Origin: Minisyncoccota bacterium
GTDB taxonomy: Bacteria; Patescibacteriota; Minisyncoccia; Phycocordibacterales; GWA1-40-21
Direction: 5' to 3'
Length of the DNA: 64,000 bases
Assembly: GCA_041663045.1 (NCBI GenBank)
Contig: JBAZRH010000002.1
Coordinates: 115,699 to 179,698 of the forward strand
Part shown: one piece after another, positions 27,001 to 45,000 of the stretch
Numbering within the stretch: the stretch's first letter is position 1
Layout: every line of letters begins with the position of its first letter
Program-made: the position numbers

Positions 27001-30000
27001 CAAAGGATGGAGATAAAAAGCCGACGGGATTCAAAGATGAGCTGGCAAAGAGTATGAATATGCAGATGAAATATGTCATGCCAATCATTATTTTTCTAGT
27101 TGCCAAGAGCTTCCCTGTTGTAGTATCTTTGTATTTGATAACAAGCAGTTTGTTTGCAATCGGTCAGGAACTTTATATGAAGAGACAGATGAATAAAAAC
27201 ACCGTTAAAGTATAAATATATGGATAATATAAAAATCAAGACTTTAATAGAAGGACTTTTAGGACAACTTGGCGTTAAGTTTGATGCCGTAGAAATAAAA
27301 GAAGATGGTCTTACGGGCAGGACAGTCTTTATTATAAAGAGCTCTGATTCCGGCCTACTTATCGGAGAAAGGGGCGAGACATTTCAAGCACTGTCGCATC
27401 TTATAAAGAGGATGGCAAGTAAAGGACCAGAAGAGTCTTCCATACAATTCGCTATTGATGTAAATGACTATCAGAGCAGTATGGTTGATAGATTGAAGCT
27501 TAAGGCTATTATGCTCGCAAACAGGGCAAAAGATTTGAAGAGTGATGTAGAAATGGAGCCAATGACTGCATATGAGAGACTCGTAATACACGGGGCTCTT
27601 ACAGGAGAAGCAAATATAAAAACAGAATCAGCTGGAGAAGGGAAAGATAGAAGAGTAATTATAAAATATATAGCCTAGTCAGATAATAGAGGGGCACTCC
27701 GCCTTTTTTGTTTTTATATTCTAAGTCCCCAGAGACTCAAATCGTTTTTATTGGTAAATACGAGGTATTTGTCATCAGGACTTAGTTTAAGATCAACCGT
27801 ATCTATTTCTGCGGAATCACTTCTACCAATCTCATAAAGCATATTCGTTGTCCCTTTCTCCACATCTATTTTCCAGATATTGTCTGAAAATGATGTAATC
27901 CCCTGATACCATGAGTCAGGATAGCTCCCAGTCGGAATATTTTTGGGTACAGCACAGTAAATTATATTATTGTCAGTGTTTGACCACACGCACTTATCTG
28001 AAAAGGTTGAAACTTGTAGACTCTTATCGTTATTATTTCTTATATCATAATGACTAAGTCTTATAGAACCACGTAGGCTTTCTGAATATATCATGCTGGT
28101 AGCATCCTTTCTGACAAGTACCGTAAGACCGTATTTGTTGCCGAGTATTCTATCAAAAGAGTTTGTATCTGTATTTAAAAAGAATGTATACCCGGCATTT
28201 TTAAATGTTGGCTTGGTAGTAAATGGTATTATTGAATTTTTCGGCCAAGAAATAATCCAACTAGATATTTGTGAATCGAAGGCTTGTTTTTTATTCATCC
28301 CGTCGATTGAGGAGATAACCCCGTAGCTTCCATTACCATCTGTTTTCTTGATAAGGGCAAAAGCTTTATCCCCTGCCGGGTTTATCACCACAGAGTCGGC
28401 ATTCGGCGAGAGAAAACCCCCAATCATTTCACCCAGAAACTCATTTGAAGAGCTACTTGAGATTTTTATTTTACCGGAGAAACTCGAAATAGCGTTTGTA
28501 TTTTCGTCCAGATATCTCATTATTAAATTACTACCATTTATCCCCCACACAGACTCCTGGATTTTCGGTATAGTTGTGTTTGTTATCCTCAGGACTTCTT
28601 TCGAGTCTGTTTTTGCTTCCTGAATGTTTCCTGTGGATCTATCCACAAATCTTATTTTAATAATACCGTCTTTTATAAAGATAGTCGCACCGGATACTGG
28701 AGAGGAATAGATTTGTCTTAGTTGTGGAACTTCACCAGCTGTTTGTTGTGATGGGGTGATCGTATTGTTACCAGTTCCTGTGTTGTCCGCGGTGGTCTTA
28801 TTCCCAGGAGTGTTTCCGAAAGGTAGTGACGTGGTGCCGTCCGTAGTTACTGGAGCTTGACTTTGATTACCACCAGAAAAATAGAACCACAAAGATCCTA
28901 TGATTAGTATGGCAACAATTGCAAGTGTTAAAATTATAGCGTTCTTCTTTTGCATATTTTTTATGGAGTATTAACTATCCGATTACCTGTAAAATCCACC
29001 AAAGCAGGATTGATCGTGTACAGTATTAACCAAGAAACAAGAGCTAAAGCTAATCCGTATAGAGCGTTTTCAATTTTTTCTTTACCATCCTCTTTTCCGG
29101 ACCATGAGTCTGTTGTCATATAGAGAATTCCACCCCAAGAAATCATTACCACCGAAAGGACTACTGCGATGGCTATACCAAAGTTGAAAATATCTCTTAA
29201 AAAGTTGCTGAGATTTGAGGTCTGTATTTTTCCGTCTACTAGGCCGACTCCAAGTTGACTGAAAGCGCTTGGTTCGAGTGGTGTGTACCCCAACGGCTCG
29301 GCAGCAGTATGGATAACTGGACTAAGAGACAGTATTAGAAGTGTAAAAGACAGAAAGGTTATAAAGTGTGCGGATATCTTTGTTATTTTTTTACTCATAT
29401 TATTTTCTTATTTAATATTATTCCCCAAATGTTACACTGAAGCCATTCCCTGCATATTGGAAAATCCTAGCAAGGTTTTCAATCTGGAGTGATATTGAGG
29501 CGACACCGCTTGTTCTACCGCTTTGTTTCAAGAGTAGCTCATTTTTATTACCTGGAACACTCACCGTACTCCCGTTTACAGACCATGAATATGTGGAGTC
29601 ATTGCCTATTGCACTGTTTAAATTGAAGAAATACGGTTCTGCAACTACTTTTAACTCTTCCCTATTCCCGAGGAAGTAGTTGCTATTTATTGCTTTATTA
29701 AAAAGTATTCCATATAAAGGACTATTCTCATAGAAGATAATTTTGGGATCGCTCGGAAAGATATTTATAGATTGACTGGCTATAGGGTTTCCTCCTGAGT
29801 ACGATATATCGAGACTTACATTTATATCTTTGATGGGGACGCTACCGTTTACGATGAGGACACTTTTACCCAATCCAGAAGAGTCTCCGAGGACTATGCC
29901 GTCTTTTATCCATTTGAAATTCAAATTATTTGCACCAACTTTTCTACCGTCTTTTATTATGTTTGGTATAGCGATTATCTTCACGCTTCCTTGGCTGACA

Positions 30001-42000: not shown

Positions 42001-45000
42001 CCTGAACAGAGCTCTGAGCAGTCAATAGAGAAGATTGCGAGATTGCTTGGCAATCTGTTGTGTTTGGAAATGAAAGTAAGCCATTTGACCACTCTGGTAG
42101 GTATACTTTACCAATCGTTGTAGCGTTTGCATTAGCTTTTACTCCCCAATCCCCCACGACTACATCATCTTTTAGCACCTGAACTCTTTTTGTGGAATAG
42201 TTGTAATCCACTGTCCATTTATGATATCCAGTTACAGATGCAGTACCTATTGCATAGCCGTTTTGTACATCTCCTTTGTATATAGGGTTTGTAAATTCTA
42301 CACCGTCTCCAAGCTTGAAGCCAAATTTCCCTTTGTAATTAAATATTTCGAATGTATGTCCGTCATTGGCGAAGAAAAGCTTTCCACCTTCAGGTCCGCA
42401 GAAGTCCGAGTAAGCTTCGAATTTAAAACTTTTACTAAACGAGATGTCCATATCTTTACCTGTAAATACATATGCTTGTGTGTATTTGCAAGATTCTGGT
42501 TTCTGCCCGAGGCTATTCAAGTATGCATCAGAGGTTGTGTCTGTGCCTGATGAGACAATCTTTGCAAAGTCTGAGACATTATTGCCATTTGCGTCTTTAC
42601 AGACTAGTCCTATAGATGTTGGTTGATCTAATTGCATATAGGTTCCTCCTGCAGGAGAACTTATATCTGTCCCGCTCCAGCCTGTGATGGATCCTGGAGT
42701 AGACGAAGCGACACAGTCAGAAACATTATGAGCGCTCCATGTTATAGCGATGGTATTTGTGTCATTTGGTGTAGTAGAGATTTGACCCAGTACAAAGTCG
42801 ACATCTGAATTGTTTATTTTTACATCAACTGACGGTGTCAGATTTACTGAAGTGTCCGCTTGGCCAATAATAGATACATGGACGCTGTCAGCCACTACTC
42901 CTGTCAGTCCTGTACAAGTCAAAGTGAAACTTGTTGGAACTGTGATATTGTCAATGGTTTTTGTCCCATTTGTGTCGAATGATACACCGAGACCACTAGT
43001 ACAGGATGTTACATTTCCGGATGTCCAAGAGACGATTACAGATGACCCCGATGCTATAGCAGATGGTGAATGAGAGTTATTCACTGTTAGGTTTACATAC
43101 GGAAGTGATGAATTTTGTAGGTTCTGTCCTGAAGGATTTGCTGAAGAATTGGTATTATTTATAGTATAGCTACTACCGCCTATATAATTGCCCCATTGAG
43201 TAAGACTACTATTTGACGAGTTTGTATTTGTACTGGATGAAACTGTATTTACGAGCGAATTGAGTTTTGCTCTTGTAGATACTCCTACGAAACCTGTACC
43301 ACGGGTTAATCCATTTGGTGTGAGTATTTCGCTAGTATATTTTTCTTGGAATTCAATAACCGCATTTTTTGTTAATTGTCCAAAGTATTGGGTTTCCATA
43401 CCAGATGATCCTATACCTGAGGATGTGAGGGCTGTCGTCGTATCAGAGTTTAATATTTTTTGTAGTGCGTATACATCTTGACCAACGGTGCCGATGGACA
43501 TATCTCTATAAAATATAGACGTACTTGTTTGATTTTGTGCGACAGCTCGGCCTATATATTGGAAAGGAGAGCCAATTAAAATAATGGAGATTATTAACAG
43601 AGACGATATCGTTTTTACAAAGGCACTATATTTTAGAGTCATTATAATAGGTTAATTAATAAAATACAATGATATTGTAGCTCCAATAAGAAAAATAATC
43701 AAATGGACTGTCTTGTGATAGAAAACCATTTTTCTAGAGACACATCTTCGGCGCGGATTTTGGGGTCGAGATCGATGGCGGAAAAAATTTGCTGCAAATC
43801 TTTTCCTCTAATTCCTTCGCTGAATTTTTCTCTCAAATTACTTATCAAAACCTTTCTCTTGTGTGCAAAACCGGCATGCAGAATTTCAAAAAACCTTTCC
43901 TCCAACTTGGAGGTGTCGCCTCCAAGTGAGCCTTCAAATCTTTTTCTTGAAATATTATCTATCAAAATCACTGCTGAATCCACTTTCGGTGCGGGGACAA
44001 AACTCCCTTTTGAGACCTTTGCTACTATTCTCGGCTCGCCATAGGCTTTTACGCTGATTGAAAGCAAACTTTCCTTGCCGTCTCTCGCCACAATTCTTTC
44101 GGCAATTTCTTTTTGCACAAGTATTACCATTCTTGTCGGCTTTATTGGCCCCGACAAAAACTTTCTGAAGAATTGCCCGGTGATGTAATACGGAATATTC
44201 GCCACGATTTTGAATTTACCGTCCTTTATCCCCCATTTTTCTGCATCACTCTCCAAAATATCACCTTCAAATATTTCAAATTTACCTTCTGATATTTCAC
44301 TAGCGAATTTTTCTTGTAAGACTGAAATAAGTCTATGATCTTTCTCCACCGCTATCACCTTTCCCGCTTTCTCCAGAAGCTTTTTTGTAAGTACACCTTC
44401 TCCAGGTCCGACTTCTAGTACAATATCGCTAGCGGAAAGTTCCCCCGCATCCGCGATCTTCTGTAAAACTCCCTCATTCTTAAGGAAGTTCTGCCCCAAT
44501 GATTTTTTTGCCTGTATGGTCATATTTTATTTGTATTTTCTGCTCTGCCGTAAGTGAATGAACGTCCCCACTTTTCTGTGTCCGCAGGCGAGCTTGCAGG
44601 GTGCGATGTGGTGTAATTTTGCGAGAAGTAATCTTCGAGCAAAAGTATACCACAGCGCAAGCCGCCGAGGATTAGGAAATTTTCCGGCTGGGGAAAATTT
44701 CTGCACAGGAAAGTGGGGATGTGAATGAGCCTTTACCACTCAAGATACACTATTTTCTCCCTATATTCAAAGTGTTCTTCTTGAAGCAGATTATTATCAA
44801 TATCTCCCAGAAATTCCGACGGCAGATTCATTTGTTGTGAGCCGTATATCGTGCGCATCTCGGCGTAGGTCAAAAAAAGTTTTTTTCTGGCACGAGTGAG
44901 TGCGACATAAAAAAGCCGTCTCTCCTCCTCCATTTCTTCCGGTGTTTTTTCCGCTTTGCCGACTGGCTGATGTGGAAAAAGGTCGGCTTCAAGGCCAGTA

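Follow-up and report, generated by a model that had tools for sequence, protein, structure and literature searches.

A gene cluster at positions 27714-39055 of the 64-kb stretch of bacterial DNA analysed here is quite probably, judging from its sequence, a chromosomal type IV secretion system (T4SS) of the Patescibacteria type and not a conjugative element. The stretch, called the window below, is part of a 295-kb contig (JBAZRH010000002.1) of a Minisyncoccota bacterium, and all window positions refer to these 64 kb. Systems of this kind are thought to be central to the life of ultrasmall bacteria on host cells and, to our knowledge, no other T4SS has been reported as indispensable for the survival of its owner. 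The genes of the cluster can be identified with T4SS components, they occupy a conserved position within the chromosomal core, they are strongly conserved, and genes for DNA transfer are absent from their vicinity. The cluster represents, in typical form, a system described in publications of 2023–2025; its interpretation as a dedicated apparatus is correct and, because the same system has already been described (PMC12102498), not new. The window offers a clean Paceibacteria example in which every gene is placed and a conserved ten-gene core is separated from a variable slot for peptidoglycan-binding proteins; it also provides, in g9, a candidate pilus-tip or host-recognition subunit that is amenable to testing.

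All twelve open reading frames (ORFs) g1–g12 are present where a previous reading, made from the sequence alone (the sequence-only reading), had placed them. Its central structural claim, a run of ten consecutive minus-strand genes, is confirmed: g10 (first transcribed) to g1 (last) span 27714-39055 with an operon-like spacing, the intergenic gaps being only 2–65 nucleotides (nt). The features, with protein lengths in amino acids (aa), are as follows.

g1, 27714-28955, minus strand, 413 aa: membrane anchor and extracellular domain, probably a TolB-like beta-propeller
g2, 28961-29398, minus strand, 145 aa: VirB2-like T4SS pilin (PF18895)
g3, 29418-30431, minus strand, 337 aa: transmembrane helix and three tandem immunoglobulin (Ig)-like domains predicted by AlphaFold2
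g4, 30493-32319, minus strand, 608 aa: monoderm-type VirB4 ATPase by profile match (NF045971)
g5, 32322-32960, minus strand, 212 aa: TrsD-like, predicted separate N-terminal domain of VirB4
g6, 33010-33441, minus strand, 143 aa: PrgI family, equivalent of VirB3 (PF12666)
g7, 33449-34198, minus strand, 249 aa: cytoplasmic protein without a Pfam or PDB family match
g8, 34203-36284, minus strand, 693 aa: putative extended VirB6-like polytopic membrane protein (weak family support)
g9, 36350-38014, minus strand, 554 aa: secreted glutamine/asparagine (Q/N)-rich protein, candidate VirB5-like stalk or pilus tip
g10, 38066-39055, minus strand, 329 aa: anchor, two thrombospondin type-3-like repeats and a C-terminal domain
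g11, 39126-41585, plus strand, 819 aa: secreted protein with a peptidoglycan-binding domain, divergent from g10
g12, 41675-43642, minus strand, 655 aa: peptidoglycan-binding protein, convergent with g11
Origin-region core genes on one border, 22009-27678: dnaN and dnaA (minus strand); rpmH, rnpA, yidC and jag/khpB (plus strand), from Pfam and direct reading of translations
ksgA/rsmA and pcrA/uvrD on the other border, 43699-46679, minus strand: Pfam RrnaAD (E 1.9e-49) and UvrD-helicase (E 1.7e-90)

Non-overlapping ORFs of at least 120 aa in the window were scanned with Pfam or NCBIfam profiles. For comparison, one genome per species was scanned for VirB4, which yielded more than 580 relatives; the best 80, picked by VirB4 similarity, supplied the related loci referred to throughout (up to ~22 kb each).

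The ATPase g4 matches the profile NF045971 (VirB4, Firmicutes CD1110 type) with 373 bits against a cutoff of 325, covering profile positions 174–733, and intact Walker motifs are present at residues 262 (A, AKSGSGKS) and 468 (B, LMVIDE). BLASTP comparison with PrgJ of pCF10 gave an expectation value (E) of 2e-43 over PrgJ residues 215–772 (26% identity across 566 residues), that with TrwK of R388 an E of 2e-8. By these matches g4 is a VirB4 of the monoderm lineage, far closer to PrgJ than to TrwK. The usual N-terminal ~200 residues of VirB4 are lacking from g4. The product of g5 in turn matches N-terminal VirB4 positions in two NCBIfam profiles, NF045975 (positions 100–238, E 6.9e-10) and NF045971 (positions 2–116), as well as TrsD/TraD (NF041427, E 5.8e-6); its stop lies 2 nt before the start codon of g4 (junction ...taaatATG), and a separate ORF of ~213 aa is found in 79–80 of the 80 related loci. 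On profile evidence, the N-domain missing from g4 is g5, a detached TrsD-like ORF which the sequence-only reading had left unidentified, and since the split is kept across the related loci it is a family trait and not a frameshift.

PrgI/VirB3 proteins serve to anchor VirB4 to the membrane. Their equivalent in the cluster is g6, which matches PF12666 (PrgI) with 40.8 bits (gathering score 27), has two hydrophobic helices within residues 24–63 and is found in 77 of the 80 loci at a median identity of 55%. The pilin gene g2 matches PF18895 (T4SS_pilin) with 35.4 bits (gathering score 26.6), and its hydrophobic segments (residues 5–29, 74–92 and 111–136) correspond to a signal peptide followed by a two-helix hairpin; a counterpart occupies the equivalent position in 65 of the 80 loci. 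The VirB2-, VirB3- and VirB4-like assignments of the sequence-only reading thus all pass curated cutoffs (PF18895, PF12666 and NF045971). The VirB6-like assignment fared less evenly. Its structural part stands: residues 107–410 of g8 contain ~7 hydrophobic helices, and 37% of the residues in its C-terminal tail of 254 aa are K, R, D or E. No Pfam or NCBIfam family matches g8 itself, while six of 45 orthologues match Pfam TrbL/VirB6 (best E 1.6e-4). With hhalign, one C-terminal membrane region of g8 aligns to PrgH and to TrwI of R388 at 21–25% probability, and the family profile retrieved only coiled-coil noise from the tail when compared to the PDB. The predicted topology agrees with the 'extended VirB6' class of a 2025 review (PMC12857230), albeit the family assignment itself is weak.

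The cluster lies beside the presumed replication origin, so placed because dnaN-dnaA-rpmH-rnpA-yidC-jag bound it on one side and ksgA-pcrA on the other. Wherever full flanks are available in the related loci, the order is pcrA, ksgA, (slot), g10 to g1, (jag), yidC, dnaA, dnaN, with almost no exceptions; the synteny comparison that the sequence-only reading had proposed thus shows that more than 40 other Paceibacteria species have kept the gene order. The VirB4 proteins of the best 80 relatives, which come from Paceibacteria lineages including Taylor-, Nomura-, Campbell-, Wolfe- and Zambryskibacteria, are 78–87% identical to that of the window. Relative to the proteins of the window, median identities amount to 81% for g4, 61% for g5 and 55% for g6, compared to 59% for DnaA, 58% for PcrA, 51% for DnaN, 48% for KsgA and 46% for YidC of the same loci; the VirB4 figure is biased upward because the loci were selected by VirB4 similarity, although the gap (VirB4 at 30493-32319 against DnaA at 23324-24709) is still large. 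The envelope-exposed proteins of the cluster reach only 27–42% identity. At the sequence level, this pattern shows that the cytoplasmic and membrane core is under strong purifying selection and that the exposed parts diverge rapidly.

These comparisons bear directly on whether the cluster might be a decaying, non-functional remnant of an integrated conjugative element that has lost its DNA-processing genes. Such a history would account for the lack of a relaxase, a coupling protein and a recognisable VirB8 or VirB1, and for a VirB4 encoded by two ORFs. Against it, all ten ORFs are intact and tightly spaced, the catalytic motifs of VirB4 are preserved, the division of VirB4 is a conserved trait of the TrsD family, and more than 40 species retain both order and content, their VirB4 (81% identity) being better conserved than DnaA. 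We regard a remnant as very improbable.

The sequence-only reading had further stated that no relaxase, VirD4 coupling protein, VirB11 or other hallmark of mobile elements is present in or near the cluster, and profile scans and tblastn searches of the 64-kb window bear this out. The Pfam and NCBIfam scans of window ORFs of at least 120 aa recovered housekeeping genes only, and no relaxase, VirD4/TcpA, VirB11, integrase or transposase was found by them. Searches by tblastn with PcfC, PcfG, PrgK and PrgL of pCF10, a Tn916-type integrase, and TrwB and TrwC of R388 returned nothing from the window or the 80 related loci (E <= 0.01), and no member of the VirB7, VirB9 or VirB10 outer-membrane core families was recognised by Pfam or NCBIfam among the cluster proteins. 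TrwD produced one tblastn match, to ORF 1-978. This ORF was considered as a VirB11 and rejected, its NCBIfam score being 367 bits for the GspE/PilB pilus ATPase family against 59.6 for VirB11. ORF 1-978, which encodes an ATPase of the GspE/PilB type (type IV pilus or type II secretion) and the sole T2SSE-family ATPase of the window, is cut by the start of the window and lies beside ruvB, 27 kb from the cluster.

Flanking signatures of integration were looked for as well. Apart from the missing integrase, a direct-repeat scan of the window for attachment-site-like repeats gave short matches at chance level only, the single tRNA gene found is 6 kb away from the cluster, and the GC content of the cluster matches that of the rest of the window. 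Promoter, terminator and Rfam scans gave nothing beyond chance. All tests at the sequence level speak for an apparatus fixed in the chromosome and against a mobile element, and the earlier proposal of a dedicated apparatus is supported by position, synteny and the missing DNA-transfer genes.

A working machine for conjugation or DNA export, with its relaxase, coupling protein and origin of transfer encoded elsewhere in the genome, has to be considered nevertheless. The VirB4 of the cluster descends from monoderm conjugation systems, and the DNA searched is 64 kb of a 295-kb contig; moreover, VirD4 homologues are present in most Patescibacteria genomes, and coupling-protein genes are often distant from virB4 (PMC12102498). 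Relaxases, on the other hand, were detected in just 103 of 3,035 Patescibacteria genomes in the same survey, and neither a relaxase nor a coupling protein occurs in the window or the 80 related loci. The locus is also fixed beside oriC in many species and shows no traits of a mobile element, and in Southlakia the distant coupling-protein homologue is non-essential whereas the T4SS genes are essential (PMC12102498). A conjugation function is therefore, in our judgement, decidedly unlikely.

The Patescibacteria-type T4SS, in contrast, accommodates the window with ease. Quinonero-Coronel et al. (2025; PMC12102498), who examined 3,035 Patescibacteria genomes in a survey, found VirB4 in 2,417 of them, forming a clade nested within the monoderm mating-pair formation class MPF_FATA. 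TrsD was the commonest partner encoded near virB4, PrgI/VirB3, VirB6 and PF18895/VirB2-like pilins were also found there, and in Paceibacteria and Microgenomatia the locus adjoins dnaA, dnaN, rnpA, rpmH and ksgA. The window shares this arrangement: a monoderm VirB4 with a TrsD-like ORF, PrgI, a putative VirB6-like protein and a PF18895 pilin, without a relaxase or nearby coupling protein, at the dnaA/dnaN/rnpA/rpmH/ksgA location. Nothing essential differs, and the accessory genes are resolved slightly further here (Ig-like stalk g3, TolB-like propeller g1, VirB5-like candidate g9). In this genome the variable slot encodes two peptidoglycan-binding proteins of unusual size, and the pilin is short, lacking the C-terminal extension found in most relatives. 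A 2025 review treats the Patescibacteria systems as an established new branch of the T4SS superfamily (PMC12857230).

The sequence-only reading had likened the locus to those of Saccharibacteria, and the comparison is apt, the survey describing the same features (PMC12102498). Wang et al. (2023; PMC10633639) showed the equivalent cluster to be essential for epibiotic growth of a Saccharibacteria species. The cluster SEML1_0006-0019 of Southlakia epibionticum ML1 is likewise close to the origin, encodes VirB4, PrgI, a large VirB6-like protein and PF18895 pilins, and has no recognisable relaxase or coupling protein; the hypothetical gene SEML1_0009 lies next to VirB4, in the position that the 2025 survey assigns to TrsD. 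It differs from the window in gene order and in having six divergent pilins and an NTF2-like (VirB8-like) protein; the window encodes a single pilin, and no VirB8 was recognised in it.

More distant systems share parts of the machinery. With the Prg/Pcf system of pCF10, the prototype of MPF_FATA, the cluster has in common a core of the PrgI-PrgJ(VirB4) type, a weak similarity between g8 and PrgH, and the absence of an outer-membrane core complex. The pCF10 system also comprises PcfC (VirD4), the PcfG relaxase, the PrgK hydrolase, PrgL (VirB8-like) and the PrgB adhesin, none of which is detectable here; conversely, the window encodes a VirB2-like pilin, which pCF10 lacks, along with a VirB5-like candidate. 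Systems of the MPF_T class (R388, pKM101 and Agrobacterium) share with the window a two-helix pilin, a secreted protein beginning with QGIPV(Y/F)D and an adjacent gene for a polytopic, putatively VirB6-like protein, but the window is without VirB7, VirB9, VirB10, VirB8, VirB11 and VirD4, and the VirB4 proteins are only distantly related (E 2e-8).

The likeness to MPF_T centres on g9. The protein carries a signal peptide ending in ARA, after which the mature chain starts with QGIPVYD; a conserved cysteine-containing domain follows this N-terminus, and the variable C-terminal module is in this case a Q/N-rich helical bundle (29% Q+N in residues 341–554, in agreement with the Q/N-rich secreted protein of the sequence-only reading). 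Mature VirB5 proteins from diverse MPF_T plasmids begin in the same way: QGIPVFD in TrwJ of R388, QGIPVYD in Sphingobium and Rhizorhabdus, GGIPVID in Piscirickettsia. The motif hydrophobic-P-V-x-D directly after the cleavage site was found in 17–20 of 77 relatives of g9 and in 36 of 138 further representatives of the family, whereas it was absent from all 180 control proteins (families of g1, g3, g7 and g8). Elsewhere in the same proteins its background frequency is ~0.001–0.007 per window of equal size, which makes for an enrichment of ~40-fold or more. Furthermore, g9 is located directly upstream of the VirB6-like g8, and three of its orthologues match the short Pfam model DUF4141 below threshold (23.8–26.4 bits; gathering score 30).

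In Bacteroides conjugative transposons, traG encodes VirB4 and traJ encodes VirB6. Proteins with DUF4141 are listed beside traJ, and grouped with traG, in these transposons (PMC10434189). With 6,116 cluster representatives (E <= 1e-3), the g9 family is large; Pfam has no family for it. One member, WC631_02905 from a metagenome-assembled genome of a Candidatus Paceibacterota, is 100% identical to g9. In orthologues, the C-terminal module is swapped for discoidin or PKD domains.

Other searches yielded no link to VirB5. Pfam VirB5 matched neither g9 nor its orthologues, hhalign of the g9 family against TrwJ returned a probability of 1%, that is nothing, and its comparison to PrgK was equally empty, as were a profile search against PDB sequences and a tblastn search of 72,556 plasmids with a g9 homologue. 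The protein is also more than twice the size of VirB5, contains a cysteine-containing domain not shared with it, and its N-domain gave a poor structure model. Neither VirB5 nor an adhesin is reported in the survey of the Patescibacteria-clade system (PMC12102498), and the term VirB5 does not appear in the text of the Southlakia supplementary files (PMC10633639). Taken together, the sequence evidence leaves it evenly balanced whether g9 is the missing VirB5 equivalent, and hence a candidate for the pilus tip, of the Patescibacteria T4SS. If it is, a monoderm machine would retain the entire VirB2-VirB5-VirB6 module for pilus nucleation of Gram-negative systems, which would back a VirB2 pilus in a monoderm T4SS, and the exchangeable C-terminal modules of the tip (Q/N-rich bundle, discoidin, PKD) could determine host specificity and offer a handle on host range.

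The pilin itself varies in size among the relatives (pilin ORFs compared: g2 and, in the related loci, L007:13386-14696, L013:13748-15199 and L058:3479-5206). It is a bare hairpin of 145 aa in this genome and in the three closest relatives; in most other Paceibacteria the ORF at the same position is 300–480 aa long and carries a helical or coiled-coil C-terminal extension of 250–350 aa. The extension of one Nomurabacteria locus includes an NlpC/P60 hydrolase domain.

The remaining proteins of the cluster are, with one exception, anchored in the membrane. The single hydrophobic helix of g1 (residues 6–24) precedes an extracellular part which is probably a TolB-like beta-propeller. The sequence-only reading had named a beta-propeller, and a profile of the g1 family does match TolB structures in the PDB, weakly (best E 1.4e-3); nothing stronger emerged, no Pfam or NCBIfam family matches g1, and one of 45 orthologues matches PD40. 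It is present at the equivalent position in 64 of the 80 loci. Structure prediction, which had been suggested for the proteins without a family, was informative for g3 and not for the N-domain of g9. The AlphaFold2 model of g3 (mean predicted local distance difference test score (pLDDT) 88.2, predicted template modelling score (pTM) 0.72) was compared to the PDB with Foldseek, and its neighbours there (E down to 1.4e-9) are tandem arrays of Ig and fibronectin type III domains from adhesins and surface layers, for example Hoc, SiiE and an ice-binding adhesin. As modelled, g3 is a membrane-anchored surface stalk or spacer of three Ig-like beta-sandwich domains, and it occurs in 77 of the 80 loci. 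It was also considered as an equivalent of VirB8 and rejected: the three domains are Ig-like, there is no NTF2 fold, and hhalign gave no match to PrgL.

The thrombospondin type-3 repeats previously seen in g10 are represented by two motifs of the DxDxDGxxD type, DTDKDSLPD and DTDNDGTPD, following a hydrophobic helix at residues 18–36; they are predicted to be calcium-binding thrombospondin type-3-like repeats, although the profile matches lie below threshold (NF047639 E 1.7e-6; Pfam TSP3_bac E 0.0095). The gene is recognisable in 31 of the 80 loci. The exception, g7, has no transmembrane segment. Alignment of 41 orthologues revealed a conserved N-domain of ~100 aa and a disordered linker with an IENP motif, and neither Pfam scans of these orthologues nor a PDB profile search gave a credible match. 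The C-terminal tail, DPY(R/K)EPI, is almost invariant, and IENP is set apart by disordered linkers of variable length. From its sequence the tail looks like a short docking peptide for a partner protein.

By analogy with the assembly model of R388, as summarised in a review (PMC12857230), an order of assembly, a pilus and a role at the host interface may be proposed for the cluster. VirB4 (g4) and the TrsD-like g5 would dock on PrgI/VirB3 (g6) and the VirB6-like platform (g8) in the cytoplasmic membrane, and the VirB2-like pilin (g2) would be extracted from the membrane and polymerised on the g8 platform. The VirB5-like g9 would probably seed and cap the polymer, its variable C-terminal module contacting the host, while the Ig-like stalk g3, the propeller g1 and the calcium-binding g10 may brace the structure where it crosses the cell wall. 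Such a machine would act where the bacterium attaches to its host cell, and it would transport proteins or other molecules, not the DNA of the bacterium itself.

Several points weigh against this picture of a Patescibacteria-type secretion system, in addition to the selection bias in the VirB4 identities and the poor structural and hhalign results for g9. The VirB6 and VirB5 assignments are based on weak or short-motif evidence, and no VirB8-like or VirB1-like gene was recognised in the cluster. The extension of 250–350 aa which the pilin carries in most relatives does not fit easily into a filament of the canonical VirB2 kind. The gene for a coupling protein could lie beyond the 64-kb window, as the VirD4 homologues of most Patescibacteria genomes lie mostly far from virB4 (PMC12102498). 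Finally, genetic essentiality is known for one Saccharibacteria species only, in which the locus is arranged differently, with six pilins and an NTF2-like protein (PMC10633639).

Another explanation is a device for uptake of DNA or other import, comparable to ComB of Helicobacter or the archaeal Ced system, which would feed the cell from the host or the environment. ComB also lacks VirD4 and VirB11 (PMC12857230), Patescibacteria are unable to make nucleotides, the T4SS of the class ABY1 is found beside comF, recG and radA (PMC12102498), and uptake of host molecules by a pilus has been speculated upon (PMC12857230). ComB is, however, devoid of VirB5 (PMC12857230), for which a similar gene seems to be present here, and window scans identified no competence genes beside the cluster. 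In Southlakia, deletion of comEC abolishes competence and not viability, whereas the T4SS stays essential (PMC12857230). Import of cargo other than DNA would in any case overlap with the secretion-system interpretation, which leaves the direction of transport open. We consider a dedicated import device unlikely.

Outside the ten-gene core of the putative secretion system, g11 and g12 both lie between g10 and ksgA. The sequence-only reading had described them as two giant convergent secreted proteins with peptidoglycan-binding domains which flank the cluster; the domains and the convergent orientation hold, but the proteins do not flank the cluster and are not conserved. PG_binding_1 matches g11 with an E of 1.2e-7 and g12 with an E of 2.8e-4 (21.4 bits, just under the gathering score of 23). 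The latter protein has a signal peptide and a C-terminal membrane anchor (hydrophobic segments 6–24 and 618–651). Searches of the PDB and of 5.8 billion proteins gave only the peptidoglycan-binding domain and very few homologues for both (~7 substantial ones for g11), and the related loci match g11 solely through this domain. The two genes occupy a variable slot at one end, g11 as a lineage-specific occupant, and are not conserved parts of the system. A guess that the C-terminal region of g11 is a glycoside hydrolase found no support. The ksgA-g10 junction (39056-43698 in the window) is empty in some species and in others holds an opposite-strand protein of ~350 aa with PG_binding and TIG domains, often accompanied by a partner of ~125 aa (loci contrasted: L005, L013, L016 and L023 versus L042, L044, L065, L071 and L075).

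On the opposite border, a minus-strand ORF of 200 aa at 24989-25591 is an antisense artefact; direct reading of translations places the real genes between dnaA and yidC as rpmH (24809-24943, plus strand) and rnpA (25044-25379, plus strand). The interval 25601-26470 contains a minus-strand ORF of 149 aa with the sequence NHFHIMI, possibly a HIT-like histidine motif, for which the 80 related loci have no counterpart. It is followed, just upstream of yidC, by ~420 nt without a convincing ORF or Rfam match.

Just beyond pcrA, at 47080-48132, a protein with LysM and peptidase M23 domains is encoded, a neighbour which recurs in 10 of the related loci. Since M23 and LysM domains occur in some VirB1-like proteins according to the survey (PMC12102498), this protein could take part in remodelling of the cell wall for the T4SS, or simply in cell division.

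At 4070-14583, domain matches to adenosine 5'-phosphosulfate (APS) kinase, a GTPase of the elongation factor Tu (EF-Tu) type and a 3'-phosphoadenosine 5'-phosphosulfate (PAPS) reductase-type protein are found beside an ATP-binding cassette (ABC) exporter and four glycosyltransferases. The matches may be read as sulfate-activation genes (cysC, cysN and cysD-like), and this reading would suggest a locus for a sulfated surface polysaccharide, which one would not expect in a reduced genome. No Pfam family matches three large ORFs (584, 561 and 553 aa) at 14639-18132 and 50008-51669; the one of 561 aa has a weak NCBIfam match to a region of the ZmpA metalloprotease.

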